This document shows positions 5,897 through 29,859 of a stretch of 64,000 nt of DNA, one piece after another; the stretch's first letter is position 1; every line of letters begins with the position of its first letter. The translations under genes were made by a program, and so were the position numbers. Source of the stretch: an uncultured Gemmatimonadales bacterium (lineage in GTDB: Bacteria > Gemmatimonadota > Gemmatimonadetes > Longimicrobiales > RSA9). Location: assembly GCA_963741945.1 (NCBI GenBank), contig CAVUKA010000001.1:160001-224000 (forward strand). Reading direction: 5' to 3'. The notes beneath the pieces were generated by a model, which worked only from the letters and a program-made list of their open reading frames with translations, did not search any database and was not told the DNA's origin.

Positions 5897-6223
5897 GACG
5901 TCATCTCTCCCGCGGACTGCCGGCGGGACCCCACATCCGCGACGCGCATGCGCCTACGATAGCGCCCCACCAGCGTGCAGGAAATCCCTCGAAGTGCGGC
6001 CGCGCCCGGCTCCCGAGCCGGCTTCCTCACCGGAACAGCTATTGCAGTTCGGCACCTCGCGAGCCCCTGCCGATTCCGCACGGTTTCGAAGGAGAACGGC
6101 ATGCCCCGGGATGAGCTCCTCTCCGCGGTCGTGATCGTGTGGAGCGTCGTGTCCCCCCTTCAGCTTCGCACTCCCCTGGGTTCGCGCCGCATGAGCCCGC
6201 TCCGGCGTCCCCGGTAGGGCGCG

Positions 6224-7507: not shown

Positions 7508-7718
7508 GGCTCGTGGTGACGATGCCGGGCGGGTCGATGGCGTCCACTGCCGCACCAGCGCAGCGGTGCGGTCGGCGGCGAGCGCTTGCGACGTCGGCCT
7601 CGCCGGCGGCGCGGCCGTGCGGTGCGAGTCCGTGTCCGTGAGGTCCGCTCCCCAGCCCATCGCCTCGCAGGACCAGCAGGAAGCGATGCTCGTTCACCGG
7701 CTGAACGTGGACCGCGCG

Positions 7719-8732: not shown

Positions 8733-8871
8733 TCGGTCCCTTTCTTCTTCGAGTGTGCGTTCATCGCTCGAGCGATGAGGTCCAGGTGCCGCCGCCCCGC
8801 TTGTTCGCCACAGCCGTATACGCGGCGTCGTGGAAGTCGTGTGGTCGTTGGCCACCTGCCAGCGGACGCGG

Positions 8872-9175: not shown

Positions 9176-9652
9176 ATGCCCGGGATGGCGACGCTCACAA
9201 TGAACCCGGCGGTGGACGCGTTCGCCACCGTGGACCGGGTGGTGCCCGACGAGACGCTCCGCTGCCGCGACACGCGGCAGGACGCCGGCGGAGGTGGCAT
9301 CAACGTGGCGCGCGCCATCCTGCACCTGGGCGGCAAGGCCACCGCCATGTTCCCCATGGGCGGCCCCGAGGGAGACCTCCTCGCCGGCCTGCTCGAGGAC
9401 GAGGGCGTTCGGGTCGCCCCCGTCCGGATCAGCGGCTCGACACGCGAGGATCTGACCCTGTACGAGTCCCAATCGGCGCGGCAGTTCCGAGCTGGCCAGG
9501 CGCGACGTGAGGGAGGATCCGGAGCAGGAGGGCGGTTCGGCGTCGTTGCCGGCGCCGCCGCCGTCATGACCCCGGGCACCGAGCTGTGCCGCCCGGAGGA
9601 CACCGAACGGCTTTTCGAACGTATCCGCGACTCGAATGGAGATGGATCATGA
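9176..9652 (+). pseudogene. 1-phosphofructokinase-family (PfkB) hexose kinase with an in-frame internal deletion
   Basis: N-terminus TLTMNPAVD...AGGGGINVARAI joined to C-terminus RFGVVAGAAAVMTPGTELC; only about 158 aa and the GAGD catalytic motif is missing. Confidence 0.8.
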
Positions 9653-12859: not shown

Positions 12860-15025
12860 TCAGCGGCGACCGTTGAACGTCGCCCGCACGCCGAGGTGGA
12901 ACGCGCGGCCCGGCCCCGGCTCGAAGAACCGCCTGCCGAAGGCGTTCACGGCCACGGACGAGATGTAGTCGGTGTCGAGGATGTTGGAGATGCCGGCGAA
13001 GGGATCGACGCGGAGGCCAGGGGCGTCGACCGTCCATTCCCCCCGCACCGACAGAAGGGTGTAGCCGTCGGCAGCGTCGGTATTGGCATCGTCCACGGGC
13101 GTCCTGCCCGAGACCGTGGCATCGAGGGCGATGAGCGCGCGGTCGAGCCGACCGGTCAGCGTGCCTTCGAACCGGTGGGGTGTGACGCCGGGCACACGGT
13201 TCCCGCCATACTGCCTGGCGTCGACTTCGAAGTCGCGGAACCGGGCGTCGGTCCAGGTATAGGCCATGTCGGCCCGCAGGCGTGGCGTGACGGACACGGA
13301 GACGGCCGTCTCCACGCCCTGATGTCGGGTGGTGCCAGCATTTCGGTAGTACTGCCGGCCCGGCGACGTGGCGACCTCGAACGGGATGAGCGCGTCTCGC
13401 ACACGCGCCCGGTAGACTGCGACCTGGTACGTCAGGCGCCCCGCGTCGCCGCGCGCACCGAGCTCGACGGAGGTCGTCCGCTGGGGCTCGAGGTCGGGGT
13501 TGAAGCCACCGGCCGAGTCGGGCCGATTGACCAGCTCGGTCGTCGTCGGCGTCTCGAAGGCGGTCGCGACATTGGCGTAGAGATCGAGGGCGCCGGCGAG
13601 GCGCGCGCGCACGCCGGCCGTGGGACTGAACGCGCTCATGACGCGCTCTCCGCTGTCGTTGGGATCGCCGTCGGTGAACCGATCGCGCGCGCGGAAGCGG
13701 TAGCTGTCGTAGCGTGCTCCGGCAGTGAAGTCGACGTCGTTGCCGATGGGGAGCCGCGTGTGGGTGAAGGCGCCCAGCTGCCGCACCCATTCCACCTGAC
13801 TGAGCACCAGGTCGCCGCGCGCGCCGCCGTCGTTCTCATGGTTGCGCCGGTCGTCCCTCTGGAGCCCCGCCTCGCCGCCGACGGCCACGCCCACGGGCCC
13901 GATGCCACCGAGCCACAGGACGCGGCCTCCGGCGGCCCGACGGTGGAGGTCGATGATGACGGGGGGAATCGGGTTGTCCAGCGTCTTGAGCAGTCCCCAT
14001 CCCGTCAGCTCCACCCGGCCGGCGCCTGTCCGCCGATCCCACCGGAGCCCGACCAGCCCCTGCCGCCCGGCCTCGCTCGTCTTCTGGGCCACATTGGCCG
14101 GATTCGCCTGCGTCGGGTCGGCGCGCAGCTGATTGGCGGTGAGGGAGCCCGGGTTGTCGGCGGCATAGTCGACGAGGGCGCCCAGCGCATCGAGCCGGCC
14201 GCCGGCGAGGGATCCGCTGCCGCGGAAATCGGCGACGGTGCGACTCGATGCGGCGAAGGCGCGGAAGCCATCGACGTGGCGCCGCGTCAGGCGCGCCTGA
14301 TACGCGAAGCCGGCGCTGCGGCCGCCGACGCGCGTGTGGGCGCGCGCCAGGCCACCGCTCCCCGCCAGCAGCCCGGCCTGTACGGCCAGCGGGGCGTCGC
14401 CGGGATCGGTGGTGTGGATCATGACCACGCCGCCGGCCGCGTTGCCATAGATGGCCGAGGCTGGACCCCGCAGCACTTCCACCTCGCGCACCGCGGCCAG
14501 GTCGAGGCGGCTGAGATCGGTCTGGCCGTCGGGCAGTGTGGCCGGAATGCCGTCGATGTAGACCCTCACGCCGCGCACGCCGAACGCGGAGCGGGCGCCG
14601 AAGCCGCGGATGCTGAGCCGGTCACCGAGCGCCTCGTTGTAGCGGTTGTCGGCCTGGAGCCCCGGCACGCCGTGCAGCACGCCCGCGAGCCCCCGATCGG
14701 CGCGCGCGGCCGCGACGCGCTGCGGCCCGAGCACGCTGACCGCGTAGGGCGCCGCGGCCGCCCCGTCATCCGTGCGAACCACGATGGGAGGCAGGGAGAT
14801 GGGGGGCGCGGTGTCCCGGGCGGCTTCGCCTGCGGACGTCTGCGCGGACTGCCGAGCGGCCGCCGTACGGGCGGTATCGGGGACCTGTGCTCCGACGCCG
14901 GCCGGCAGCGCTGCGAGGGCCACGCCGGCCGGCAGCGCTGCGAGGATGGCGCGAGCCGCCGCGCGCAGGTGGAGGATGCGCGGGATGTGGTGCATACGCC
15001 TCGGTGCGAACGGGCGGATCCGCAC
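12860..15025 (-). CDS. TonB-dependent receptor, YncD-like (start may be 14995)
   Basis: Plug motif LSIRGFGARSAFGVRGVRVYIDGIPATLPDGQ...EVLRGPASAIYGNAAGGV; FETPT; FFEPGPGR near the C-terminus. Confidence 0.9.
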   Translation of the reverse strand: MRIRPFAPRRMHHIPRILHLRAAARAILAALPAGVALAALPAGVGAQVPDTARTAAARQSAQTSAGEAARDTAPPISLPPIVVRTDDGAAAAPYAVSVLGPQRVAAARADRGLAGVLHGVPGLQADNRYNEALGDRLSIRGFGARSAFGVRGVRVYIDGIPATLPDGQTDLSRLDLAAVREVEVLRGPASAIYGNAAGGVVMIHTTDPGDAPLAVQAGLLAGSGGLARAHTRVGGRSAGFAYQARLTRRHVDGFRAFAASSRTVADFRGSGSLAGGRLDALGALVDYAADNPGSLTANQLRADPTQANPANVAQKTSEAGRQGLVGLRWDRRTGAGRVELTGWGLLKTLDNPIPPVIIDLHRRAAGGRVLWLGGIGPVGVAVGGEAGLQRDDRRNHENDGGARGDLVLSQVEWVRQLGAFTHTRLPIGNDVDFTAGARYDSYRFRARDRFTDGDPNDSGERVMSAFSPTAGVRARLAGALDLYANVATAFETPTTTELVNRPDSAGGFNPDLEPQRTTSVELGARGDAGRLTYQVAVYRARVRDALIPFEVATSPGRQYYRNAGTTRHQGVETAVSVSVTPRLRADMAYTWTDARFRDFEVDARQYGGNRVPGVTPHRFEGTLTGRLDRALIALDATVSGRTPVDDANTDAADGYTLLSVRGEWTVDAPGLRVDPFAGISNILDTDYISSVAVNAFGRRFFEPGPGRAFHLGVRATFNGRR
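14895..14945. repeat. 24-nt direct repeat (27-nt period) in the receptor signal region
   Basis: acgccggccggcagcgctgcgagg occurs twice and encodes LAALPAGV twice. Confidence 0.8.
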
Positions 15026-15152
15026 GGGCGGCGCCCCGGGACGTGGGCGGATGCGCCGGCGCGATGAGTGGCAGCGGCATTGGCAACATCCGTTCCCTAC
15101 ACGCAGCGCGGAGCCGCAATGGGGGGCAGCCGGATCCGAGGGCGCTCGCGGC

Positions 15153-15434
15153 TCAGGGTTGACCGGATCGCGGACTGCTCAGCTCCTTCCTGAAGTCGCT
15201 CTCCTCTCGCAGGCGCCGGAGCTCGGACTCCGTTCCCTCCAGCTGGTTCTCCAGCAGCGACACCCTGGATTCGAGCGACGCCAGCCGACCCCCGGTCTCC
15301 GGCGTCTGCCGGACCAGCGCCAGAGACTCCACGATCGGTTTGAGCGCGAAGCGAGCGGTGATCCCCGCGACGGGGATGAGGATGACGAGCGTTCCCATGA
15401 TGACCGCGGCGAGCCCTACCCAGTCGATCGGCAT
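15153..15434 (-). CDS. Small single-TM coiled-coil protein
   Basis: GGGGAGG RBS; MPIDWVGLAAVIMGTLVILIPVAGITARFALKP followed by a heptad coil. Confidence 0.75.
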   Translation of the reverse strand: MPIDWVGLAAVIMGTLVILIPVAGITARFALKPIVESLALVRQTPETGGRLASLESRVSLLENQLEGTESELRRLREESDFRKELSSPRSGQP

Positions 15435-15541
15435 ATCGGTCCTCCCCCGTTCGGATTCGACACCGTGTGCGCGCTTCCGGCTGTACGGAGCGCCCGCGCC
15501 GCCGGTTTCGCAAGAGTCCGGAGCCGGCCGGTTCGGCCCGG

Positions 15542-16963
15542 CTATGGCAGCAGGGCGATCCCGCGCAGGAGCGAGAATGCCGGGCCGGCGGCGAGGCCGA
15601 GGGCGAGGGTGGCGAGCGCAGCGACGGCGAGGGTCCAGCGGGCCCAGGGACCGAGAACGGCCACGCGTGCGCCCGCCGCCGGGTCGTCGAAGTAGACGGG
15701 GGCGAGGACGCGCAGGTAGTAGAAGAGGGAAACCACGGTGTTCGCCACGGCCACGCCGGCGAGCCAGCCGTAGCCGGCGTCGATGGCGGCGCCGAACACC
15801 ACGAGCTTCCCGAAGAACCCCACGAGCGGGGGCACCCCCACCATGGACAGGAACGCCACGACGAGGGCGGCCGCGGCCCCCGGGCGAGCGGCGCCGAGGC
15901 CGTGGTAGTCGGCGAGGTTCGTGCGTCCCCGCAGGTGGGTGACCACGGCGAACGCCGCCATGGTAGCCATCCCGTAGCCGAGCAGGAAGAAGAGGAGCGC
16001 GGGGAGCGCGAGCGGCGTGCGTCCGAGCACCACCACGGCCACCAGCGCGTACCCGGACTGGGACACCGACGACCAGCCGATCAGCCGGCGCACGTCGGTC
16101 TGCCAGAGCGCGGCCAGGTTGCCGATGCTCATGGTCGCAACGGCCAGGGCGGCCACCAGCAGACGCCACGGCACCATCCCTTCCGGCACCAGCATCAGCA
16201 AACGGCCCAGCGCCACGAGCGCGCCGATCTTCGGCACCACGCCCAGGAACGCCGCCGATGGCGCGGGCGCCCCCTCCGCCACGTCCGGGAGCCATGCGTG
16301 GGCGGGGAACGCGGCCAGCTTGTATGCCAGTCCCACGGCGACGAAGCCGATGGCCACCAGCACGCCCCAGGAGGATGGGGGCGGTCGGCTGGCGAGCGCC
16401 GCCTGCGTCGCCGGGTAGCCGGTGTCGCCGACCAGGCCGAACAGCAGCACCACGCCCGTGGCCAGCAGCGCGTTGGCCAGGGCGCCGATGAGGAAGTACT
16501 TCATCCCCGCCTCGACGGAGAGCGGCCAGTCGCGGTGGTAGGCGGCGAGGGTGAAGCCGGTGACGGAGGAGAGGAGGACGGCAATGACCAGCTCCATGGT
16601 GTCGGCGGCGCCGGCCATGAGGATGGCGCCAAGGGCGGAGAGGAGGAGCACCCCATAGTACTCGCCGTGGCGGCGGTCCTCGCGCAGCCACTCCGGTGTG
16701 AGCCCCGCCGAGAGGGCCGTGAAGGCGAGGATGAGGAGCGATGCGGCCGCCGTGGCGCCGTCGAGCGCCCAGCTCCCGCGGAACGTGAGCCGCGGCGCTC
16801 CCGTTCCACGGGTGACGACGAACGCGGCCGCCGCTGCGAGCCCGGCGAGGGCGATGAGGGCGCCCCACCAGTGCCGCCGCTGCGCCACGAACGAAGCGGT
16901 CAGGACCGCGACAATGGCGGAGACCAGGAGCGCGATCTCGGGAAGGACGTCGCCGACCGGCAT
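15542..16963 (-). CDS. nuoN: NuoN-like antiporter subunit
   Basis: EAGMKYFLIGA, YKLAAFPAHAWLPDVAEGAP, VPKIG, GFFGKL. Confidence 0.88.
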   Translation of the reverse strand: MPVGDVLPEIALLVSAIVAVLTASFVAQRRHWWGALIALAGLAAAAAFVVTRGTGAPRLTFRGSWALDGATAAASLLILAFTALSAGLTPEWLREDRRHGEYYGVLLLSALGAILMAGAADTMELVIAVLLSSVTGFTLAAYHRDWPLSVEAGMKYFLIGALANALLATGVVLLFGLVGDTGYPATQAALASRPPPSSWGVLVAIGFVAVGLAYKLAAFPAHAWLPDVAEGAPAPSAAFLGVVPKIGALVALGRLLMLVPEGMVPWRLLVAALAVATMSIGNLAALWQTDVRRLIGWSSVSQSGYALVAVVVLGRTPLALPALLFFLLGYGMATMAAFAVVTHLRGRTNLADYHGLGAARPGAAAALVVAFLSMVGVPPLVGFFGKLVVFGAAIDAGYGWLAGVAVANTVVSLFYYLRVLAPVYFDDPAAGARVAVLGPWARWTLAVAALATLALGLAAGPAFSLLRGIALLP

Positions 16964-18445
16964 TCAGCGCCCCACCACCAGGAACCCGGCGGTGCTCTCG
17001 ACGAGCGTGAGGAGGAAGCGCGGGTAGACCCCGATGGCGATCACCGCGGCCAGCAGCACTCCGAGCACCGCGCGCTCCGAGCGCGACAGGTCCGGGAATG
17101 CCGCCCATCGCTCGGGCAGCTCGCCGGTGAAGAGGTCGCGCAGCATGAGCAGGAAGAGGGCGGCCGTGACCAGCACGCCGACCAGGGCCAGCCCGGCGAG
17201 CCAGGGGAAGACGCCGAACGTGCCGATGAAGATCTGGATCTCGGCCACGAAGCCGGCCAGGCCGGGGAGGCCGAGGCTGGCGAAGGCGGCCACGACGGCG
17301 GCGACGGCGAGCACGGGGGCCGGACCGGCCAGCCCGCCGAACGCGCCGAGGTCGTACTCCTTCGCCCGCTGCCAGAACGACCCCGCGATGAGGAAGAGGG
17401 ATCCCGTGATGAGCCCGTGCGCCACCATCTCCACTGTGGCCCCGGTGAGCGCGAGCCGGCGCGCTCCTTCGGCGCCGTGGAGCGCCCCGCCCGCGGCCGC
17501 GATCCCCAGAACGGCATAGCCCATGTGATTGACCGACGTGTAGGCGATCCGCCGCTTCAGGTCGCGCTGCGCCAGGGCGACGAGGGCGCCATAGAGGATC
17601 GAGACCAGCGCGATGACGCCGATGACGAACGCGTAACGGTGGAAGGTCTCGCGCATCATGGAATACGGGATCCGGATCAGCCCGTACGTCCCCATCTTGA
17701 GCAGTACGCCTGCCAGGATCGCGGAGCCCGGGCCTGGCGCATCCACGTGCGCAGGGGGCAGCCAGGTGTGGACGGGGACCACGGGCGTCTTCACGCCCAG
17801 CCCGATGCCGAAGCCGAGGAGCGCGAGGCCGGCCAGGCCGCTGCCGGCCAGCGGCTGCTGCGCGATGATGGCGCGCATGTCGAAGGTGCGGGGGTCCGTC
17901 GCCAGGTACAGGGCGAGGATCGCCAGCAGCATCGTGAGTGACCCGGCCAGCGTGTAGAGGAAGAACTTGAGGGCGGCGCGGCGGGCGTCGCCGTGGCCCC
18001 ACCGGCCGATGAGGAAGAACATCCCCACCAGGCTCAGGTCGAAGAAGACGTAGAAGAGCAGCAGGTCCAGCGCGAGGAACACGCCCAGCGAGACGGACTC
18101 GAGGAACAGGAGCCAGGCGTAGTACTGGCGCGGCCGCCCCTTCGTGTCCACCGGATAGGCCGTGGCGCCGGAAAAGAGGAGGGCGCTCATGGTGGCGACC
18201 GCGAGGGCGATTCCGTCGACACCGAGGCGATAGCCGACGCCGAGCGAAGGGACCCACGGCACGTCCACCACGAGCTGGAACTGTGGTCCGGCCGTGTCGA
18301 AGCGGAGCCACGCCCCCACGAGCAGGAGGAAGGGGACCGCCGCGGCGACCATGGCAAAGCGCCGCGCCGCGGCTTCGCTCCAGCCAGGCCGGAGCGCCAG
18401 CGCGAGGGCGGAAAGGAGCGGCACCACGAGTGTCGCCGTCAGCAT
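16964..18445 (-). CDS. nuoM: NuoM-like antiporter subunit
   Basis: LGVDGI, VKTPVVPVHTWLPPAHVDAP, LAGVLLKMGTYG, AYTSVNHMG, GFVAE. Confidence 0.9.
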   Translation of the reverse strand: MLTATLVVPLLSALALALRPGWSEAAARRFAMVAAAVPFLLLVGAWLRFDTAGPQFQLVVDVPWVPSLGVGYRLGVDGIALAVATMSALLFSGATAYPVDTKGRPRQYYAWLLFLESVSLGVFLALDLLLFYVFFDLSLVGMFFLIGRWGHGDARRAALKFFLYTLAGSLTMLLAILALYLATDPRTFDMRAIIAQQPLAGSGLAGLALLGFGIGLGVKTPVVPVHTWLPPAHVDAPGPGSAILAGVLLKMGTYGLIRIPYSMMRETFHRYAFVIGVIALVSILYGALVALAQRDLKRRIAYTSVNHMGYAVLGIAAAGGALHGAEGARRLALTGATVEMVAHGLITGSLFLIAGSFWQRAKEYDLGAFGGLAGPAPVLAVAAVVAAFASLGLPGLAGFVAEIQIFIGTFGVFPWLAGLALVGVLVTAALFLLMLRDLFTGELPERWAAFPDLSRSERAVLGVLLAAVIAIGVYPRFLLTLVESTAGFLVVGR

Positions 18446-18449
18446 CGGT

Positions 18450-20393
18450 TCAGCCTCCCAGGATCAACAGGACGAGAAGGATGCCCAGCCCCACCATGAT
18501 GAGGCGGTAATACTGGTGGGCGAGCCCCGTCTGGAGCCGCCGGGCCCACGAGCCCGCGCGGCCCACCAGCCGGGACAGGCCCTCCGGAGCGCCGTCGATG
18601 AGGACTTCCGCCCCCCGCTTCCCGGCCACGGCCAGCCGGGCCGCGGCATCGGCCGCCCACCACACCGTTCCATCCACGACGGCATCATCGAACCGGGCGA
18701 GCAGGCGAGCGCTGTCCCGCGCCACGCCGGGCAGCAGCCACACCGCCCGGTCCAGCACGCCATCATCGAAGCGCGCGAGCAGGTCGGCACACCGCTGAGC
18801 GGGCCGCGCGATGACGAGCCGGGCCAGCGCGGGGAGCCCGAGCCAGTCGGCGGCCGGCGCAGCACCGGCCTCCCCCAGCCGCGGCCGGAAACGCGCAACC
18901 GCCCAGCCGATCGCCACTCCGACCGTGACCAGGAGCAGTGAAGCCGCGAGCTCCCACGCCTCGCTCGACGGCACGATCCCCGCCAGCGCCTCCGCGACTC
19001 GCTGCGCCACGGGCGCGGCCCAGAGCAGCGAGAGCAGTGCGGTGGCGGCCGCGAGCAGGTAGAGCGCCCCGCGTTCTGCCGTGCGCGGCGGGCGGCCGCT
19101 CTCCCCCTCCCCGCACCCCGCTCCGCCGCGGCCGAACGCCTGGAACCAGAAGCGGGCCATGTAGGCGGCCGAAAGTCCACCGGCGATGCTCACGGCCACC
19201 GCCAGCCACGGGGAAGCGTGCCCGGCCGCGGTCACCACCTCCTCCTTCGTCCAGGCGGCTCCGAGGGGGGGCACACCGGCCAGCGCGGCCGCGGGGAGCG
19301 CGGAGGCAATGGCCACCCCGGGCAGCGCGCGCCCCAGCTTCATCCCGGGCAGGCGATAGCTGCCCGTGCAGCCGTGAGCGACTCCCGAGGCGAGGAAGAG
19401 CGGCGCCTTCGCCAGTGCGTGGGCGACGAGGTGGAGCACCGCCACGGCGGGATACCCGGCGCCCACGGCTACGAACATCAGGCCGTAATGGGCGGAGGTG
19501 GAGCCGGCCAGAAGTCGCTTGGCATGGGGCTGGAGGAGGGCGACGAGCCCGCCCGCCAGTGCCGTGGTCACGCCCACCGCCATGGCCGCCGGCCCGAACC
19601 AGGCCACACCGCCGAGCACCGGCTCCAGTCGGATAAGCAGGAACGCCCCGGCGGCCACCATGGTGGCCGCGTGGAGCAGCGTGGAGACGGTCACCGGCCC
19701 TTCCATGGCCGCGAACAGCCACGGCGCAAACGGCAGCTGCGCCGACTTCGCCGCGGCCGCGGCCAGCAGCCCCGCCGCTACCAGGTGGAGCGGCAGCCCG
19801 GTAAGGCCGGGCAGCGCCCCGTAGCGCAGCGAACCCGCACCGGCGAACGCAGCGACCACGGCCAGGAACATCCCCAGGTCGCCCGCGCGCGTGGTGAGGA
19901 AGACCACCGCCCCCGCCCTCGCCTTCCCGCGCTCCCACCACCCGTGGGCCACCAGCAGCGCCGAGCAGGCGCCGATCACTTCCCAGCCGACCACCAGCGT
20001 GAGCAGGTCCGCCGCCCCCGCAACCAGCTCCATGGCCCCCGCGAAGAACGTGAGCAGCACCAGCAGACGCCGCAGTCCTCGCGCCTCCTCGTGGTAGGCC
20101 GCGTACGCCACCACCGGGGCGGCGACCAGCGGTACCAGGACGGCGAAGATCGGCACCACCGGCGAGGTCCCATAGGCGTAATCCAGCGACAGGCCCAAGT
20201 CGGCCGCCCACAGAAGCCGACCGGTCCAGCCATGGACGCCCGCCAGCCCGGCCAGTGCGGCGGTGGCGACCATGGTTCCCGTGCTCAGCACGGCCAGCGG
20301 CGCTCGCCCACCCCTCCCATCTCCACGGGCGAGCCCCGTCAGCCCCAGCAGCAGGGCGCCGAAGACCGGAAGCAGGGGAACCAGCCAGGCCAT
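18450..20393 (-). CDS. nuoL: NuoL-like antiporter subunit
   Basis: GWEVIG, AKSAQLPFAPWLFAAMEGP..VSTLLHAATMVAAG, HALAKAPLF, WTKE, long lateral helix ending RLQTG. Confidence 0.88.
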   Translation of the reverse strand: MAWLVPLLPVFGALLLGLTGLARGDGRGGRAPLAVLSTGTMVATAALAGLAGVHGWTGRLLWAADLGLSLDYAYGTSPVVPIFAVLVPLVAAPVVAYAAYHEEARGLRRLLVLLTFFAGAMELVAGAADLLTLVVGWEVIGACSALLVAHGWWERGKARAGAVVFLTTRAGDLGMFLAVVAAFAGAGSLRYGALPGLTGLPLHLVAAGLLAAAAAKSAQLPFAPWLFAAMEGPVTVSTLLHAATMVAAGAFLLIRLEPVLGGVAWFGPAAMAVGVTTALAGGLVALLQPHAKRLLAGSTSAHYGLMFVAVGAGYPAVAVLHLVAHALAKAPLFLASGVAHGCTGSYRLPGMKLGRALPGVAIASALPAAALAGVPPLGAAWTKEEVVTAAGHASPWLAVAVSIAGGLSAAYMARFWFQAFGRGGAGCGEGESGRPPRTAERGALYLLAAATALLSLLWAAPVAQRVAEALAGIVPSSEAWELAASLLLVTVGVAIGWAVARFRPRLGEAGAAPAADWLGLPALARLVIARPAQRCADLLARFDDGVLDRAVWLLPGVARDSARLLARFDDAVVDGTVWWAADAAARLAVAGKRGAEVLIDGAPEGLSRLVGRAGSWARRLQTGLAHQYYRLIMVGLGILLVLLILGG

Positions 20394-20397
20394 CGCG

Positions 20398-20703
20398 TCA
20401 GCCTTCCAGGGTGTCCAGCCCCTCGGTGGTGTCGGCCTGACGGTTCCGGTAGACCGCCACCACCAGCGCGAACCCCATCGCCATCTCCACTGCCATGATC
20501 GCCATGATGACGATCGCCAGCAGCTGTCCCCGGGGCGCGAAGCCCGACGCCATGGCCCAGAACGCCACGGTCGCCAGGATCAGCCCGTTCAGGATCAGCT
20601 CCAGCCCCATCATCAGCATCACGAACGACTGCTGCGAAAGCGCGCCGTACACGCCGATCCCCACCAGCACGGCCGCAACCACCAGGAGCGCCGGCAACGT
20701 CAT
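20398..20703 (-). CDS. nuoK: NuoK-like subunit
   Basis: 101 aa, three TM helices, MGLELILNG and AVEMAMGFALVVAVYR keep both conserved Glu. Confidence 0.88.
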   Translation of the reverse strand: MTLPALLVVAAVLVGIGVYGALSQQSFVMLMMGLELILNGLILATVAFWAMASGFAPRGQLLAIVIMAIMAVEMAMGFALVVAVYRNRQADTTEGLDTLEG

Positions 20704-21266
20704 GGCCGCCTCCCTGTCGGCTCGCCGCCAGGCTCCAGCCCGGGCGGGCGCGATCCCACGTCGGCGGGGCCGTAACGGCCGCGTCGGCTGGAGAGGATGA
20801 CAGTGCCGATCATGGCGGCGAGGAGCGTGACGCCGGCGGACTCGAAAACGAGCATGGAGCTGCCGAGGAGCTCGACGCCCAGGGCGGCGATCGGGTCGGC
20901 GGGCGGCGTCGAGCCCGCCCGGTGGAACGGAACGCCCAGCCCGACCGCCGCGAGGATGCCGCCCACGCCGACAGCGGCGGCCAGGGCGGTCGCGGGCTGG
21001 TGGACCATGTTCATCGGGTTGAGCCCGGCCGGGTTCATCATGAACATGACCATGAACAGGGCCATGACCATCATCTCGACGGCCATCATGAAGATGAGTG
21101 CGAAGCCGAGGTAGGGCGCGGCCAGGAGCAGGAGGATGGCGGCGACGGCCACGAACGACGTGAGCAGGTAGAAGGAGGCGCGAACCATGGAATCGGTGCG
21201 GAACACCCGCCAGCCGGTGACGATGGCGAGCGCGGCGAAAGCCCAGAACAGCGCGTCGATCGCCAT
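20700..21266 (-). CDS. nuoJ: NuoJ-like subunit, Met-rich
   Basis: MAIDALFWAF...; FESAGVTLLAAMIGTVIL matches the last NuoJ TM; TGATG overlap with nuoH. Confidence 0.8.
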   Translation of the reverse strand: MAIDALFWAFAALAIVTGWRVFRTDSMVRASFYLLTSFVAVAAILLLLAAPYLGFALIFMMAVEMMVMALFMVMFMMNPAGLNPMNMVHQPATALAAAVGVGGILAAVGLGVPFHRAGSTPPADPIAALGVELLGSSMLVFESAGVTLLAAMIGTVILSSRRGRYGPADVGSRPPGLEPGGEPTGRRP

Positions 21267-22198
21267 CAGAACAGGGCCACGAGGCCGGCTTCCAGGAGCC
21301 CCAGGAACGAAAGCGGGAGCAGGCCCAGCCAGACCAGGGAGACCACGCGCTCCGTGGCGATGCGGGCCGTGCTCCTGCCGAGGAAGGCGAGCAGCGTCAG
21401 GACGGCCAGCGTCTTGACGGCGAGCCAGACCGGTCCCGGAAGCCACGGCCCCAGCCACCCACCCAGGAACACCGTGGCCGCCACGGCGGAGAACGCCACG
21501 AGCATCGCGCGCCGGGCGAACTCCCAGACGAGCCTCGAAATGCCCGAGACCTCGGATGACGCCCCGCCCGCCAGGTCCGCGCTGTCGGCGAAATCGAGCG
21601 GTCCCCAGAAGGCGACGCCGAGCCCGACGAAGAGGAAGAGCGGCAGTCCGAGGGGCTGTCGGACCACGTTCCACACCCCGTGCTGGGACTCGACGATCGC
21701 CGACAGCCTCAGCGATTCCGCCGGGAGCGCGGCCGCGATGAGGACGAACATGCTCACCAGCATGTAGGTCAGCCCGAGGGCGACGTAGCGGTATCCGCCG
21801 ATCAGCGACAGGTGCGCGTTCGCGGCCCAGCCGTGAAGGAAGATGACCACCACCGCCAGTGCCTCGACGGAGCCCCAGAGCACGATCCCGGCGGCGACAT
21901 CCGCCGGCGCCAGCGCGCTCGACCATGGCACTGCCGCCAGCCCCACCACCGCCAGCGCCAGGTAGAGCGAAGGCGCCAGCATCCAGGCGGGCGCGTCGGG
22001 CCGCTCGGTCCGGTTCCGCTGCTGCACCAGCAGGAAGGCCGCCTCCCGGAGCGGAGCCAGGAGAACCGGCCCCGACGAGCGACCGGCCACGGCCGCCGCG
22101 GCGAGCCGGTCCAGGATGGCAAAGCCCCACACGCCGGCCAGTGCGGCGGCGGCGAGCACCCCCACGGTCGTAGCCGTCCCCGCCGTGGCCGGAATCAT
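21266..22198 (-). CDS. nuoH: NuoH-like subunit (divergent)
   Basis: GWAANAHLSLIGGYR, SLRLSAIVESQ.GVWNVVRQPLG, TVFLGGWLGP, VKTL; ATGA overlap with the upstream gene. Confidence 0.82.
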   Translation of the reverse strand: MIPATAGTATTVGVLAAAALAGVWGFAILDRLAAAAVAGRSSGPVLLAPLREAAFLLVQQRNRTERPDAPAWMLAPSLYLALAVVGLAAVPWSSALAPADVAAGIVLWGSVEALAVVVIFLHGWAANAHLSLIGGYRYVALGLTYMLVSMFVLIAAALPAESLRLSAIVESQHGVWNVVRQPLGLPLFLFVGLGVAFWGPLDFADSADLAGGASSEVSGISRLVWEFARRAMLVAFSAVAATVFLGGWLGPWLPGPVWLAVKTLAVLTLLAFLGRSTARIATERVVSLVWLGLLPLSFLGLLEAGLVALF

Positions 22199-23301
22199 GC
22201 CCCGCCTTCCGCTGTGGGAGTCAGGTCGGCGGCCACCACCACCAGGCACGCCTCGCTCCACTCGAGGCCGGGCAGGTGCTCCGCCAGCCACGCGGCCGCA
22301 TCCGCATGGCCGCCGGCCACCGCGTTGTCGAACGCCGCCGGATCGCCGGCCGCCGTGGACAGGAGGCCATGCAGGTGCGAGCGGACCGTGCCGCCCCCGG
22401 GCAGGGGCACGGCCGGGAGCGCGGGCAGCGTGGCGCCGAAGCGCACCAGCGACTGGAGCCGGCGCACGCGGGACGCGGTGAGGTCGGGGGCGAGCGCGGC
22501 CGTGAGCGCGCGGTCGGCCAGGGCGTGCGCGCCCGCCATGTCCAGGATCCAGGCCGCGCGACGCAGGCGGACGCGCGCCCCGGCCACGTCCACGTCCGCG
22601 CGGCGAGCGGAAGCGCGGCCCCCACCATCGCTTACGGCCGAAACGGCCCGGGGGTACGGTGGCTCCAGGAGCTCCGCCTCCTGCACCACGTCGCCCTGGA
22701 GCACGAGCCGGAGCACGAGTCCGGGGGGGAACGACGGAAAGAAGGGACCGATGGTGAAGGAGAGCTGATCGAGGGCGAGACCATCGCGGATGTCGTCGGC
22801 CGTCATGGCCATCGGGCGACCGTACGGCTTCCCCCCCATCATCCCTTCCCCGCCCTGCCCGTGATCGCCGAGTCCGCGCCACGGGTTCGGCGGGCGGTCC
22901 GGCAGCCACGCCGGCTCGGACGCTCGATCCCCGCGCAGCACTGCGCTGTGGAGCCCCCGCAGCGCGGGGAGCGGATCGTCGTCACCGGGGACCACCTGGC
23001 CGCTGGCGACCGACGCGCCCCCGCCGTGAAGATCCGGCTGTGGCGCGTCATCGCCCCAGTACAGCGTGGCCCGGGGGTGCGGGATCTGGTCGTGGACGCG
23101 GGCGAGCGCGGCCCCGAATCGTGACGGCACCCAGCCCGCCACCATCAGGATCGTCGCATGCCGTGGCGATCGGACGAGCCGCAGGTCGCGCCGGAGCGAA
23201 AGCGCCTCCACCCGGTCCCCTGCCCCCTCGCCGATGGCCGGGAAGATGGGCACCGGGGCGGCCGCTGCCATGGCCCCAAGCCAGCGGCGCAGCGCGCTCA
23301 C
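22195..23301 (-). CDS. Compact NuoB/NuoD-like fusion protein lacking Fe-S ligands
   Basis: SPRHATILMVAG...ALARVHDQIPHPR and VVPGDDD are NuoB-like; IGPFFPSFPPGLVLRLVLQGDVV and LPGLEWSEACLVVVAADL are NuoD-like; GTG start overlaps the nuoA stop. Confidence 0.72.
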   Translation of the reverse strand: MSALRRWLGAMAAAAPVPIFPAIGEGAGDRVEALSLRRDLRLVRSPRHATILMVAGWVPSRFGAALARVHDQIPHPRATLYWGDDAPQPDLHGGGASVASGQVVPGDDDPLPALRGLHSAVLRGDRASEPAWLPDRPPNPWRGLGDHGQGGEGMMGGKPYGRPMAMTADDIRDGLALDQLSFTIGPFFPSFPPGLVLRLVLQGDVVQEAELLEPPYPRAVSAVSDGGGRASARRADVDVAGARVRLRRAAWILDMAGAHALADRALTAALAPDLTASRVRRLQSLVRFGATLPALPAVPLPGGGTVRSHLHGLLSTAAGDPAAFDNAVAGGHADAAAWLAEHLPGLEWSEACLVVVAADLTPTAEGGA

Positions 23302-23678
23302 TGCCACCGGAAGATCCCTTCGCGCCAGCCGTAGACAATGCCGACCGAGAGGATCGTGAGGAACATCCCCATCTCGACGAGCGCCTTGATCCCCTCGCGG
23401 ACGTAGACCACGGCCCACGGATACATGAACATCATCTCCATCTCGAACGCGATGAAGAGCAGGGTCATGGAGTAGAACCGCACGTGGTAGCGGCTCCACG
23501 CGTGCGTCGCCGGCTCACCACCGCCGAGGAACGGCGCCTTCTGCGGCCCGGTCAGCGCACGCCGGTCGGCGCGGGTCAGCCCCAGCTGCACGGCAAGCGC
23601 AAAAGCGGCCGCCGTCCCGAACACGATGAGCAGGTTGAGGAGCATGCGCATTTGATTCCGTTTGCGCGCCGCAAGCAT
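23298..23678 (-). CDS. nuoA: NuoA-like subunit (start may be 23651 or 23645)
   Basis: PFLGG...YHVRFYSMTLLFIAFEMEMMFMYPWAV...YGWREGIFRW; GGAGG RBS. Confidence 0.85.
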   Translation of the reverse strand: MLAARKRNQMRMLLNLLIVFGTAAAFALAVQLGLTRADRRALTGPQKAPFLGGGEPATHAWSRYHVRFYSMTLLFIAFEMEMMFMYPWAVVYVREGIKALVEMGMFLTILSVGIVYGWREGIFRWQ

Positions 23679-23821
23679 TGTTCCTCCCTGCACGAGGGCT
23701 TTGCACCGCCTGGCAACCGCCTCGGTGGCGCTGCTGGCGCGCGCGGGCGCCGGTTGCCGACTAGCCCGCCCACGCCGCCGTCGCACTGGTCCCGCCCCGG
23801 CCGGCGCGCTACGCTGTAGCC

Positions 23822-25057
23822 ATGGCACAACCGAACGTGCTGGCGATCGTCCTCGCCGGAGGCGAGGGGAAGCGGCTGCAGCCGCTCACGCGGGACCGGA
23901 CCAAGCCGGCGGTCCCGTTCGGCGGAGACTACCGGCTCATCGATTTCGCCCTCTCGAACCTGGCCAACGCCGGCTTCCTGCACATTGTCGTGCTGACGCA
24001 GTACAAGAGCCACAGCCTGGACGTGCACCTGGGGAAGGCGTGGCGCATGTCGCCGATCCTGGGCAACTACGTCATCTCCGTGCCCGCCCAGATGCGGACG
24101 GGGCCGCAGTGGTTCGCGGGCTCCGCCGACGCCATCTACCAGAACCTGAACCTGATCGGCGACGAGCGGCCGGAGCACGTCATCGTCTTCGGCGCGGACC
24201 ACATCTACCGCATGGACCCGCGCCAGATGCTGGACGAGCACGTGGAAAGCGGCGCCGGCGTGACCGTGGCCGGGATCCGGGTCCCCCGCTCCCTGGCCAG
24301 CCAGTTCGGCATCATCGAGCCTTCCGCCGACCGCCGGCGCATCGAGCGCTTCCGGGAGAAGCCGCCCGAGGCCGAGGGGCTCCCCGACGCGCCGGACCAG
24401 GTCTTCGCCTCCATGGGCAACTACCTCTTCCGCACGGACACGCTCGTGGAGATGGTCACCCGTGACGCCGAGGACCCGGACTCCCGGCACGACATCGGCG
24501 GCGACATCATCCCCCGGCTCGTGGACGCGGCCGACGCCCACGTCTACGACTTCGCCGACAACGACGTCCCCGGCGCCACCGACCGCGACCGCGGCTACTG
24601 GCGCGACGTGGGGACGCTGGAAGCGTACTACGACGCCCAGATGGACCTGGTCTCCGTCGATCCCATCTTCAATCTCTACAACCGGCAGTGGCCGATCCTC
24701 ACCGCGCGGGACCCCGCTCCGCCGGCCAAGTTCGTCTTCGCCTCCCACGGCCGCACCGGCCACGCCCTGGACTCCATGATCTCCGCGGGCGTGGTCATCT
24801 CCGGCGGCGAGGTGCGCCGCTCCGTGCTCTCCCCCGGCGTCTACGTGCACAGCTACGCCAGCGTCGAGGACTCGGTCCTCATGCACAACGTGGACGTGGG
24901 CCGCCACGCCATCGTCCGGAATGCCATCATCGACAAGAACGTGCGCATCCCAAGGGGCGCCCGCATCGGGGTGGATCCGGAAGTGGACGCCGCCCGGTTC
25001 CATGTCACGGAGCGTGGCATTGTCGTCATCGGCAAGGGCCAGACGGTGGCGCCGTGA
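23822..25057 (+). CDS. glgC: Glucose-1-phosphate adenylyltransferase
   Basis: [42 protein letters not shown]. Confidence 0.96.
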
Positions 25058-26668: not shown

Positions 26669-29600
26669 ATGACCAGGAGTCACTGGCGTACGGCTCTGTT
26701 CGCCATGCTCGCGTTCCCGGCGGCGCTGTTTGCGCAGGACCGGGGCTCGATCGCGGGTGTGGTGACGGCCGAGGACACGAATGAGCCCCTGCAGGGGGTT
26801 CAGATCCAGCTGAAGGGAACGGGTCAGGGAACACTGACCAACCAGACGGGTGGGTTCCTGTTGACGAACGTCCCCGTGGGCGAGCAGACGCTGCAGTTCA
26901 CGTCCATCGGGTATGCGACGGTGTCGCGGACGGTGACGGTGGAGTCCGGCGCCACGTCGACGGTGCGTGTGTCGATGGCGACGGACGTGCTGGGCCTGGA
27001 CGAGATCGTGGTGGTCGGGTACGGGAAGGAGAAGCGGCGGAACGTGACGGGGGCGATCTCGAGCGTGTCGCCATCGGAGATCTCCGAGCAGATCCCGGCG
27101 CCGAACGTGGAGAACGTGCTGCAGGGCCGTGTGGCGGGGGTGCAGGTGGTGCAGAACTCGGGCAGCCCGGGTTCGGCCATGACGATCCGGGTGCGCGGCA
27201 CGGCATCGATCACGGCGGGCAACCAGCCGCTGTACGTGGTGGACGGCGTGCCGATGATCCAGGGCAACTTCTCGACGCTGGACAACCTGTACGGCGGTCA
27301 GGGGATCGATGCGCTGGCGGATCTGAACCCGAACGAGATCGAATCGGTGGAGGTCCTGAAGGATGCGTCGGCGGCGGCGATCTACGGGTCGCGCGCGTCG
27401 AACGGTGTGGTGCTGATCACCACGAAGAAGGGCGTGGTGGCGGACCGTCCGAAAGTGCAGTACAGCGCGTACTACGGGCAGCAGGAGGCCTGGCGGATCC
27501 CGGGCTTCACGAACGCCGTGCAGTACATGGACGTGACGAACGAGGGGTACGCCGCGTACGTGCAGCAGGCGTACGGCATGACGATCCCGGACTTCTTCGA
27601 CTGGGGTTATGGCGTTCCCGGGATCGACGCCTACATGAGCTACGACAACGACAACGTCAACAGCTGGTACGAGATCCCGGCGGGGACGGATACCGACTGG
27701 CTGCGTGCCATGCTGCAGACGGCGCCGGTATCGAACATGTCCGGCTCCATCGCGGGTGGTAACGAGAAGGCGCGCTACTACATCTCCGGGACCTGGTTCA
27801 ACCAGGACGGGATCGTCCAGGGGTTCGGGTACAACCGGGTGAACGGCCGGATCAACCTGGACTACAGCGTGACGGACGCGGTCACGCTGGGGACCAACGT
27901 GGCGCTGACGCACGCGGTGACGGACCGGATGGCGAGCGACAACACCATTTACGGCCCGTTCTCCAACGCCATCGCCAACGCGCCCATCGATCCGATCTAC
28001 GCGAATCCGGAGAAGACGGAGTTCAACTACAACACGTCGTACGCGAACCCGGTGGCGCTTGCGAACAAGAACTCCGCGGAAGAGCGCAACGTCCGAATCC
28101 TGGGCAACGCGTTCGCCGACTGGAACTTCATGCAGGGGCTGGACGCGAAGGTGAGCGTGGGGCTGGACCATTACGCGCTGCGCTCGCGCTCCTACGACTC
28201 GCCGGAGGTGGGTCCTGCCACGGGCTCGAACGGCCAGGCGTACGCGGGCAACTCCTTCGCCAGCAAGCTGGTGACGGAAGCCACGGTGAACTGGATCCGT
28301 GACCTGGCGGAGAACCACAGCTTCTCCGGCGTCGTCGGGACATCGTACGAGCAGAACACCACGGAGACGGACTGGGTGACGGGGACGAACTTCCCGTCCA
28401 GCGCGTTCCGCTATCTCACGTCGGCGGCGAGCATCACGGGCGGCAGCTCGAGCCTCACCGACTGGTACCTGCTCTCCTTCTTCGGCCGCGCGTCGTACAC
28501 GTTCGCGGACCGGCTGACGGCCACGTTCAACATCCGGACGGACGGCTCCTCGCGCTTCGGCGCGAACAACCGCTATGGCGTGTTCCCTTCGGGCTCGCTG
28601 CTGTGGCGCGTGACGGACGAGCCGTTCATGGGGGACCAGACGCTGCTGAGCAACCTGGCGCTGCGCGTGAGCTACGGGCGCACGGGGAACCAGCAGGGGA
28701 TCGGCAACTTCGCGTCTTGGGGGCTGGTGGGCACCGGCTACAACTACGAGGACACGCCGGGGACGGCGCCGGCGCAGCTGGCGAACCCGGACCTGAGCTG
28801 GGAGAAGACCACACAGTTCAACGTGGGCGGCGATGTCGCCTTCCTGAACGGGCGGCTGGGCTTCAGCGCCGATTACTACATCAAGAACACGACGGACCTG
28901 CTGCTGGACCGGCCGATCCCGTATTCCACGGGCTTCGCGCTGATCACGCAGAACATCGGTGCGGTGAACAACAAGGGCGTGGAGCTGACGGCCACGGCCA
29001 AGCTGGCGCAGGGACCCGCGCGCGGCTTCAACTGGACGGCCGAGATGAACGTGAGCGCCAACCGCAACGAGGTGACGGCGCTGTACGGAGACAACCCGCT
29101 CAACTACGGCTTCGTCAGCCGCGTCGAGGTGGGGCAGCCGCTGGGCGTGTTCTACGGCTACGTCACCGACGGTCTGTTCCAGGCCGATGCCGAGGCGTGC
29201 CACGACCCCACGGGCGCGACGTGCGCCGGGACGGGGACGGGGTACCAGAGCTACTACACCACCGCCGGCGACATCCGCTTCAAGGACCTGAACGGTGATG
29301 GTTTGATCACGTCCGAGGACCGGGCCGTGATCGGCTCGCCGTGGCCCGACTTCCAGGGCGGCTTCACCAACACAATGTCGTTCGGGGGCTTCGACCTGAA
29401 CGCCTTCTTCCAGTTCTCGAAGGGGAACGACATCTACAACGCCACCCGGATCTACACCGACCAGTTCGGTGGGTACTGGGACAACAACTCGGATCGCGCG
29501 CTGGACCGGTGGACGCCGGAGCACACGGACACGAATCAGCCCCGGGCGATCTGGTACGACCTGCCCAACAACGCGCGGGACTCCGACCGGTTCGTGGAGG

Positions 29601-29848: not shown

Positions 29849-29859
29849 GGAGAAGGCAT

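Follow-up and report, generated by a model that had tools for sequence, protein, structure and literature searches.

A central open question about respiratory complex I is how events at its quinone site drive proton pumps that lie up to approximately 200 Å away. Partial sets of its genes have been described in several bacteria. A “partial NDH-1/nuo operon” of marine actinomycetes is in print (PMC3314556, PMC6676996), and the portions available of Almeida et al. 2019 (PMC6676996) give its order in Streptomyces, Salinispora, and Kocuria as nuoA, a hypothetical gene, and nuoH-J-K-L-M-N, the extra gene being referred to as coding for a protein without homologs. In the excerpts at hand, Sun et al. 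2018 (PMC6002675) report the same operon in Kocuria, with Kocuria flava among the hosts of the partial operon, and the operon is thought to have been acquired horizontally, also in the sponge Streptomyces and in Salinispora (PMC6676996, PMC3314556, PMC6002675). According to the text available of Bird et al. 2021 (PMC8233155), a seven-gene nuo-like cassette interrupts the copper-resistance operon of Marinobacter atlanticus and is co-expressed with the cop genes, and the authors suggested that its energy comes from copper redox reactions. The Ehr complexes and Mbx are described, in the passages available, as relatives of complex I and the group 4 hydrogenases with a ligand-less large subunit and unknown function (PMC6349859, PMC10284858). 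Here we describe a cassette of eight open reading frames (ORFs) encoding NuoA, a NuoB/NuoD fusion, and NuoH, J, K, L, M, and N, which occupies positions 15542–23678 (minus strand) of a 64,000-nt stretch of DNA (hereafter the window; contig CAVUKA010000001.1, positions 160,001 to 224,000) from an uncultured Gemmatimonadales bacterium. The product of this cassette is probably a redox-free cation transporter coupled to the proton motive force (pmf).

By the printed descriptions, the cassette shares with the marine actinomycete operon both the gene order and the occurrence as an additional set alongside a complete complex I; it differs in that the extra gene of the actinomycetes was treated as homolog-free and that, in the portions available, only a proton or sodium pump was proposed. 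The M. atlanticus cassette is, as described in the available text, alike in having complex I-like membrane genes, with a NuoD-like and a hypothetical gene, among cop genes, and unlike in its composition (NuoADHJKL plus a hypothetical protein, the NuoL being short and nuoM and nuoN lacking) and in the proposal, which concerned copper redox chemistry and not transport. Among the named classes of “ligand-less” relatives, the Ehr complexes come nearest, and they are set apart by their descriptions, as far as these were available: they are relatives of group 4 hydrogenases expected to work together with redox modules, whereas the cassette is of the Nuo type, with NuoA and L/M/N, and the cluster of the small subunit is gone. 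The term “nuoAHJKLMN” in the available parts of PMC12142623 and PMC6295475 denotes ordinary complex I, and the part available of PMC12361115 files partial sets only as “incomplete.” In the full-text literature, with subscription journals outside the coverage, we found no description of a Cys-less B/D fusion, a Met-lined channel, or a proposal of Cu(I)/H+ antiport. The gene order is already known; the Fe–S-free nature, the Met channel, and the copper context are apparently unpublished within the literature searched.

The cassette is compact. The nuoA-like gene (23298–23678, minus strand as all eight; 126 amino acids) is followed by the gene for the 368-residue NuoB/NuoD fusion, hereafter the cap (22195–23301), whose GTG start overlaps the nuoA stop as GTGA. 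The nuoH-like (21266–22198; 310 amino acids) and nuoJ-like (20700–21269; alternative GTG start at 21275) genes each begin in an ATGA overlap, the nuoK-like gene (20398–20703; 101 amino acids) follows without a gap, the nuoL-like (18450–20393; 647 amino acids) and nuoM-like (16964–18445; 493 amino acids) genes each follow after a gap of 4 nt, and the nuoN-like gene (15542–16963; 473 amino acids) again follows without a gap. All joins are 4-nt overlaps (GTGA, ATGA, ATGA) or gaps of 0 to 4 nt, and neither the ORF list nor Pfam revealed genes for NuoC, I, E, F, or G within 15542–23678. The A, H, J, K, L, M, and N proteins all pass the Pfam gathering cut-offs (Oxidored_q4, E 1.9e-24; NADHdh, E 8.4e-40; Oxidored_q3, E 3.4e-19; Oxidored_q2, E 2.4e-16; and Proton_antipo_M, E 7.6e-42, 1.9e-64, and 4.8e-54, respectively). 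Of the curated NCBIfam cut-offs, only those for M (a subfamily model, TIGR01972; 470 bits vs. 264) and K (64.5 bits vs. 57) are passed, with the A (79.8 bits vs. 163; below every NuoA equivalog cut-off), H (121 vs. 399), J (49.5 vs. 154), L (261 vs. 556), and N (319 vs. 333) proteins scoring below them. An earlier note, made from the sequence alone, had read the locus as a cofactor-less derivative of complex I with a complete membrane arm, encoded by eight tightly packed genes without C, I, and EFG and bounded by a divergent glgC and an unrelated small gene. This description holds, with seven membrane subunits above the Pfam cut-offs and a small gene without a family match.

Compared with respiratory complex I, the cassette has all seven membrane subunits, and each of them pairs in blastp with its own counterpart (L with L, M with M, N with N); the best matches of the window NuoL are E. 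coli NuoL and the host’s own NuoL. Further likenesses are the Lys, His, and Glu residues of the proton paths in L, M, and N, the Glu residues of NuoK, and the NuoB and NuoD folds in the cap. The differences are that NuoC, I, E, F, and G are missing, that B is joined to a trimmed D in one protein, that the Cys ligands of cluster N2 and the quinone motifs are gone, that the “E-channel” is lined by Met, and that the Glu in transmembrane helix 5 (TM5) of NuoN is replaced by Leu. Because the cassette lacks C, I, E, F, and G, the N2 ligands, and the NuoD quinone motifs, it does not encode an NADH:quinone oxidoreductase. Mrp antiporters (CPA3) would, in our working model, be alike in being multisubunit, redox-free, and pmf-driven and in having antiporter-like and NuoK-like subunits, but they have no NuoH, NuoA, or cytoplasmic cap, and they do have MrpE, F, and G, for which the cassette has no genes. 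The cassette L, M, and N proteins also fall far under the Mrp equivalog cut-offs (e.g., 165.7 bits vs. 1104). The statement of the earlier note that the locus fits neither class is borne out on both sides, since the ligands and input modules of complex I are missing, and NuoA and NuoH are present and Mrp scores are low. The cap also differs from group 4 [NiFe] hydrogenases, as it has no conserved Cys for CxxC motifs or Fe–S clusters and shares with HycE only a likeness of fold.

The cap is the sole soluble subunit. Pfam yields only a subthreshold NuoB match for the 368-residue protein (E 0.008; 16.4 bits vs. a cut-off of 27). An alignment was made of 53 of approximately 250 homologs fetched, picked for full length and spread. 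An AlphaFold model built from this alignment had a predicted local distance difference test (pLDDT) score of 84.7 and a predicted template modeling score of 0.85. Foldseek searches with the model returned NuoB/PSST chains only (14 matches at E ≤ 0.001, the best at 2.1e-4). In a structural search against representatives, residues 1–128 resembled NuoB/PSST chains (Z 10.5–12.4; RMSD [root-mean-square deviation] 2.3–2.9 Å; 100–121 residues aligned), and residues 157–367 resembled NuoD/HycE chains, namely 8qby_D (Z 11.6; RMSD 6.2 Å; 196 aligned), 7z0t_E (Z 11.5; RMSD 4.2 Å; 187 aligned), and 7zm7_C (Z 11.3; RMSD 4.7 Å; 192 aligned). The cap family profile reaches NDUFS7 at E 3.7e-10. By the model, the cap consists of a NuoB fold and a trimmed NuoD fold; only NuoB and NuoD were matched in the structure searches, which showed no carbonic anhydrase-like or other catalytic fold. 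Family members of 420 to 440 amino acids retain more of NuoD and match PF00346.

None of the 53 family rows has a Cys at any column that is Cys in both E. coli NuoB and the canonical NuoB of the host. The window cap contains a single Cys, nine of the 53 members are Cys-free, and no alignment column holds more than 11 Cys residues; the only soluble subunit is, as had been claimed, a B/D fusion without an Fe–S motif. The earlier note had named beforehand the retention of Cys ligands by orthologs as the finding that would speak against it; none of the 53 retains them, and with 287 relatives in reference genomes the loss is not a local decay. A cofactor site in the old N2 pocket was considered and rejected, as the former Cys-ligand columns are unconserved (I/V/A/R, G, and D/E/A/R). 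In the D half, the canonical HPS-AHG of the NuoD β1–β2 loop corresponds to FPSFPPG, a position that is approximate in this low-identity alignment, and the same low-identity alignment indicates that the IGYHHRG block and much of the middle of NuoD are deleted.

The cap has an invariant Gly/Met/His-rich linker loop between the B and D halves (22804–22881, minus strand; WRGLGDHGQGGEGMMGGKPYGRPMAM), with the consensus WRGxGxHGQGGEGMMGGxPYGRPMAM. Ten linker residues (G143, G145, G150, G151, M154, G156, G157, P159, G161, and R162) show no variation among the 53 rows, and the pattern GG.GM[MT]GG.P is present in 244 of 249 cap proteins fetched. The pLDDT of the loop is low (43–50) in the model of the cap alone. 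His-rich C-terminal tails were seen in 15 of 244 cap proteins. As a lead only, the cap scores 0.77 to a 60-member NuoD-like cluster of the ESM Atlas labeled “NiFe-hydrogenase III large subunit-like,” 95% of which carries the heavy metal-binding domain PF19335; among the 120 rows listed in a second cap homolog search, there was no fusion of a NuoD-like protein with this domain.

A model of the cap–NuoH complex gave an ipSAE (interaction prediction score from aligned errors) of 0.80, compared with 0.00 for the best control; for reference, 116 of 157 solved complexes and two of 215 mismatched pairs attain this mark. Contact agreement between runs was at least 79%, and the partner pLDDT was at least 70. 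The modeled contacts involve the NuoH TM5–6 loop, the HDQxPHPR motif of the cap, and the cap β-sheet. This pass is to be read as likeness and not as binding, because like complexes (complex I) have already been solved. NuoH itself has E. coli NuoH as its best solved relative (E 2e-26), and all its solved relatives at E ≤ 0.001 are complex I/NDH-1 chains.

Of 8000 candidates scored against the cap, 511 were homologs at E ≤ 1e-3, and the cluster representatives numbered 648 at E ≤ 1e-3, 249 at 1e-10, and 171 at 1e-30. A scan of reference genomes, with one genome per species, yielded 287 relatives, and the locus counts given below refer to the best 80 of these 287. All eight genes are present in identical order at 70 of the 80 loci, and nine further loci are colinear up to a contig end, which answers the proposal of the earlier note to look for the same gene order in other genomes. 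The remaining, odd locus (L077) carries nuoA and the cap gene only, followed by 10 kb of other DNA, and comes from the same bin as L074, where the cassette is complete; this bin is labeled Bacillaceae, and its double cassette is probably an assembly or binning artifact. Broken reading frames occur at two metagenome-assembled loci, L025 and L074.

The window subunits are 39 to 88% identical to those encoded in other phyla and 26 to 39% identical to the canonical subunits of the host or of E. coli. In a NuoH tree comprising the window protein, 22 of 74 family members, and seven canonical sequences, a branch of approximately 3.8 changes per site, with 100/100 support, lies between the family and the canonical proteins. 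The ratio of nonsynonymous to synonymous substitution rates (dN/dS) was 0.03 to 0.36 for all eight genes in six chosen pairs; versus two relatives from the bacterial family of the host it was 0.20 to 0.46, with dS near saturation. The relaxed selection that had been proposed as something to look for is not seen across this range of 0.03 to 0.46.

A full-length cap gene was found in only three of 201 sampled genomes of the host’s order (a sample that includes the six unpublished genomes G030, G144, G002, G153, G095, and G078), namely in the host and in two genomes of one other genus; the remaining matches in this sample were 45-residue matches to ordinary NuoB. Relative G033 has the same eight genes in wholly different neighbors, and genome G096, of the same genus as the host, shares only short DNA matches with the window, which has a G+C content of approximately 70%. 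The cap gene is also present on five of 72,556 plasmids. The cassette is horizontally mobile.

The separate canonical nuo operon that the earlier note had suggested looking for, including B, C, D, H, L, M, and N, is present on host contig C8. The host genome has one NuoD, one NuoC, and one canonical NuoB, and no spare quinone module; its two other NuoB-like genes adjoin large subunits of [NiFe] hydrogenases. These two hydrogenases, each with a large and a small subunit, are encoded at C3:93623–98369 and C7:90770–92786. In four of four other hosts examined, a canonical NuoH was found as well. The cassette is an addition to respiration and not a replacement. Mrp was not found in the host genome, in which the six hits to PF00361 are three canonical proteins and three from the cassette.

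The membrane subunits were compared in alignments of 51 to 76 family rows each, together with the E. coli K-12 and host canonical proteins. The functional roles of the residues, given here in E. coli numbering unless the window is named, are those established for complex I. The window NuoL retains E138, K216, and K383, as well as H241, H321, H325, and K329; all 70 family rows preserve E144, K229, H254, H338, K342, and K399, and 69 of them preserve H334. The window NuoM retains K219, K250, and E402 and has D136 at the site of E144. Its family keeps K234, K265, H241, H248, H322, H348, and E407 in 69 of 69 rows, with Asp in place of E144 in all. The window NuoN retains K215, K245, and K386 and has L130 at the site of E133; the 71 family rows all preserve K247, K395, D229, E154, and K158, 67 of them preserve K217, and the TM5 Glu (E133) is Leu in all 71, at a site occupied by Glu in NuoL and by Asp in NuoM. 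The list of proton-channel residues in the earlier note stood for NuoL (E/K/K), NuoM (K/K/E), NuoN (K/K/K), and the NuoK Glu pair, and has to be amended for NuoM, where D136 replaces E144, and for NuoN, where L130 replaces E133. Any model of coupling will have to account for the Leu at the E133 site of NuoN, which is a signature of the family.

In NuoK, the window has E35 and E73; E36 is kept in 76 of 76 rows, and E72 is represented by 67 Glu and nine Asp. In NuoA, E. coli D79 and E81 correspond to E79 and E81 of the window, and both positions are Glu in the family. NuoH retains the acidic TM5–6 loop (D205/D208/E216), with changes elsewhere in all or nearly all members, E157 being replaced by Met, Ile, or Leu and E241 by Arg, and several loop charges of NuoH and NuoA are lost in the family.

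Apart from these carboxylates, the subunits around the E-channel contain Met residues that are invariant in the family and absent from the E. coli and host canonical subunits: six in NuoA, 11 in NuoJ, three in NuoK (M29, M31, and M70), and two in NuoH (M150 and M232). A Met-rich transmembrane segment of NuoA (23421–23468, minus strand; MTLLFIAFEMEMMFMY) includes AFEMEMMFMY. All 51 family rows have Met at M71, M80, M82, M83, and M85, positions at which neither E. coli nor host canonical NuoA has Met; M105, H59, and H65 of NuoA are also family-specific. In NuoJ, a ladder of 12 Met in 31 residues spans TM3 and the next loop (21000–21092, minus strand; FMMAVEMMVMALFMVMFMMNPAGLNPMNMVH). M63, M64 (aligned with E. 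coli Y59), M68, M71, M75, M80, M88, and M90 are Met in 74 of 74 rows, and further family-specific residues of NuoJ are M30, M141, and M155, together with E67, H92, and E135. When 41 family rows were set against up to seven canonical NuoJ proteins, the family-Met positions were never Met in the latter. The spacing 64-68-71-75 in TM3 suggests, as judged from the sequence, that these residues lie on one face of the helix. Overall Met content is 8.3 to 8.9% in family NuoA, J, and K, versus 2.4 to 5.2% in their canonical counterparts, and that of family L, M, and N is below canonical. Met clusters are typical of Cu(I) sites, as in CusA, CusF, Ctr1, and CopA/PcoA, and those of CusA lie within the membrane together with carboxylates.

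The gene neighborhoods were surveyed by clustering flanking ORFs of at least 100 amino acids at the 80 loci; the sequence available extends 3 kb or more upstream at 70 of them and 2 kb or more downstream at 64. Names were assigned by running Pfam on 29 representatives of the 45 largest clusters, with clusters resembling antisense shadows left out. The neighbors include multicopper oxidase (18 loci of 80), CopB (14 loci, usually directly upstream of the cassette on the same strand), DUF411 (10), and cupredoxin (four); resistance–nodulation–division (RND) pumps, cation diffusion facilitator (CDF) proteins, and cytochrome c (nine each); MerR (eight); P-type ATPase with a heavy metal-associated (HMA) domain (seven); CusB with a heavy metal-binding domain (HMBD) and outer-membrane factor (five each); and EgtB (13), EgtD (nine), and Na+/H+ exchanger (five). 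A copper-specific neighbor (multicopper oxidase, CopB, DUF411, CusB with HMBD, or cupredoxin) is present at 29 of the 80 loci, and any metal gene at 35. The 29 of 80 is a raw count over loci that are related to one another and not a measure of the size of an enrichment over random loci.

On the plasmids, the cassette sits in a copper-island setting in three of three cases with informative annotation. The plasmid of Halomonas sp. KO116 carries DUF411, copC, copD, an azurin-like gene, copRS, copA, copB, the operon, egtB, and egtD; an Acuticoccus plasmid carries multicopper oxidase, P-type ATPase, cueR, the operon, TolC, copper oxidase, and cupredoxin; and on a plasmid of Roseivivax marinus, the operon is followed by cueR 9 nt downstream and then by P-type ATPase, HMA, and multicopper oxidase genes. 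On the Vreelandella sulfidaeris plasmid, every feature is annotated “hypothetical.” The mention of metal tolerance in the earlier note matches these neighbors and the Met pattern. A scan of the 300 nt upstream of nuoA for the CueR dyad (CCTTCC-N7-GGAAGG, the E. coli form, up to two mismatches) gave one match in 80 loci and no enrichment, an outcome that says little either way. In Halomonadaceae, the ergothioneine genes egtB/egtD lie directly after nuoN on the same strand (e.g., L084:18002–19330 and L089:21973–24245; L015–L086), and their proximity may link the cassette to thiol or copper stress.

A relative of complex I that has all membrane modules and no cofactors, and that is under purifying selection, must couple these modules to something else. 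The earlier note had read the locus as a redox-independent, pmf-coupled ion pump or antiporter, a reading to which the loss of Cys ligands, the selection on all genes, and the lack of a spare quinone module lend support. We regard a redox-free, pmf-coupled cation transporter as the probable product of the cassette. Cu(I) is the cation that we put forward, with a confidence that stops a little short of even, and perhaps Ag(I) is carried too. Cu(I) is preferred over Na+ because of the thioether lining, which recalls the chemistry of CusA, CusF, and Ctr1, and because of the gene neighbors.

In the mechanism that we propose, the cap would be seated on NuoH at the place of the quinone module in complex I, and the machine would operate in an Mrp-like manner, with inward movement of protons through L, M, and N driving a cation outward. 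The exit route of the cation would be the remodeled “E-channel” of NuoH, A, J, and K. The former quinone cavity would now be lined by the cap loop, NuoA His residues, and NuoH carboxylates. The cation could be captured on the cytoplasmic side by the Gly/Met/His loop of the cap together with the acidic loop of NuoH and the His residues in the loop of NuoA, and could then move along the Met/Glu ladder of NuoA, J, and K, a single continuous Met path being part of the proposal. In the relay, the first charge may be the bound cation in place of the Glu/Lys pair that NuoN lacks. Taken as a whole, this would amount to a new class of copper exporter, in which Cu(I) is passed from an Fe–S-free cap to a Met/Glu E-channel and replaces quinone chemistry as the charge coupled to three proton modules; this complete scheme is tentative, and we hold it less firmly than the identification of the ion. 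The likeness of such a system to CusCBA and the CopA-type P1B ATPases would lie in the proposed removal of Cu(I), and these are frequent neighbors of the cassette; there is no homology, and the energy would instead come from the pmf by way of antiporter modules.

Several observations weigh against Cu(I) export. As NuoN lacks the canonical TM5 Glu, coupling may differ from what is assumed here. No clustered metal gene is present at 45 of the 80 loci, and the 80 loci are not independent, many being from Halomonadaceae or Salinisphaera. The window cassette has no copper gene beside it (its neighbors are glgC, a TonB-dependent receptor gene, and a small ORF), relative G033 is likewise without copper neighbors, and no CueR-type box was found upstream of the window nuoA. 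The conserved cap loop is absent from the confident contacts of the cap–NuoH model. Most hosts are marine or halophilic, as gathered from reading record titles and not from a computed count, which suits an Na+/H+ role equally well, and the five loci with an Na+/H+ exchanger nearby point in the same direction.

The main rival reading, which we consider unlikely, is that the cassette encodes an antiporter that exchanges Na+ (or K+) for H+ under conditions of high salt or pH, working like Mrp with an alkali cation. By the same reading of titles, approximately 70 of the 80 best loci are marine or halophilic, with genera including Halomonas, Chromohalobacter, Salinicola, Salinisphaera, Aurantimonas, Fulvimarina, and the Roseobacter group, and, in the portions available, the operon is listed among marine adaptation genes by Penn and Jensen 2012 and in later genome papers. 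The retained carboxylates of NuoK, NuoA, and the NuoH loop would suit an alkali cation, as would the lack of Mrp in the host genome and the exchanger genes just mentioned. The habitats are, however, not uniformly saline: non-marine hosts include Rhodanobacter, Fulvimonas, Rhizobacter, Burkholderiales, and Sphingomonas, and the sole listed sample with DNA of the window is labeled freshwater sediment. The saline bias also fits copper, because chloride stabilizes Cu(I). Approximately twenty invariant Met residues around carboxylates would be atypical for Na+ sites, the recurrent neighbors are copper genes and not osmotic genes, and cueR abuts the operon on two plasmids.

The pmf could also be used for another task, such as transport of another soft cation or a small molecule, vectorial chemistry as in DabAB and NDH-1MS/CupA, or a regulated proton path. 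Complex I parts have been reused in non-redox settings beyond MpsA and the NuoL-like proteins. For MpsA and NuoL-like proteins such reuse is described in the available text of PMC13399641, and egtB after nuoN at 13 of 80 loci, egtD at nine of 80, and the CDF and RND neighbors, which are not copper-specific, would accommodate a wider range of substrates. Since the cap matches NuoB and NuoD alone, without a catalytic fold, and since the most specific neighbors are copper genes, we find these alternatives improbable compared with a Cu(I) transporter.

It is more doubtful still that the product remains a redox enzyme, whether by a cap that recruits an electron-input module from elsewhere or by bound copper serving as the redox center that drives pumping. 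Relatives of complex I do swap input modules (Fpo, NDH-1, Mbh, Mbs, and Ehr, as described in the part available of PMC6349859), use of copper redox energy was proposed in the excerpts available of PMC8233155, and copper could bind at the invariant His and Met residues. Against this, the cap has no conserved Cys, the NuoD quinone-ligand motifs are gone, and NuoI, C, E, F, and G are missing in and beside the cassette at 70 of 70 complete loci. The genome offers one canonical quinone module only, its other NuoB-like genes belonging to [NiFe] hydrogenases, and no conserved redox partner appears in the neighbor clusters. That the cassette is a decaying, functionless remnant of a second nuo operon, as six missing canonical subunits and the broken frames of metagenome-assembled L025 and L074 might suggest, is already contradicted by the retention of eight genes across at least three phyla (by record titles and source names) at 45 to 84% identity to the window subunits, by dN/dS well under 1 for every gene, and by the invariant family-specific residues, and we give it almost no weight.

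The system offers a simpler test bed for models of complex I coupling. If the Cu(I) scheme holds, it would be a natural “redox-free complex I,” in which coupling becomes approachable with a simple ligand. With Cu(I) as the substrate, P-type ATPases, RND pumps, and CDF proteins would be joined by a fourth kind of copper exporter in bacteria, one run by the pmf with a potentially high H+/Cu+ ratio and mobile on plasmids and islands of marine and halophilic bacteria. The operon known as a “marine adaptation gene” set would then be a metal-resistance determinant spreading on plasmids and islands, and annotations of its products as NADH-quinone oxidoreductase subunits would need rereading.

Upstream of the cassette, glgC is encoded divergently (23822–25057, plus strand). 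Downstream, 107 nt past nuoN, lies a 93-amino acid ORF (15153–15434, minus strand), with a TonB-dependent receptor gene next to it. This small protein has one predicted membrane helix and a coiled coil-like tail; it has no Pfam or NCBIfam match and stands outside the neighbor clusters common to other loci. A promoter and terminator scan of 15000–24000 gave no promoter-like site and one terminator-like site, on the plus strand, which is fewer than in shuffled sequences. Elsewhere in the window, genes for glyceraldehyde-3-phosphate dehydrogenase and an Nramp transporter are found at 4559–8855, and a 549-amino acid ORF with haloacid dehalogenase-type hydrolase and trehalose-phosphatase domains at 9586–11235 (plus strand). 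At 26669–31197 (plus strand), in this genome of approximately 70% G+C, the gene for a SusC-like TonB-dependent receptor that carries a carboxypeptidase-regulatory domain precedes a gene of the SusD family. An RND efflux operon with an AcrB-family pump, a membrane-fusion protein with a CusB/HlyD-type barrel-sandwich domain, and an outer-membrane factor lies at 47252–52790 (minus strand).

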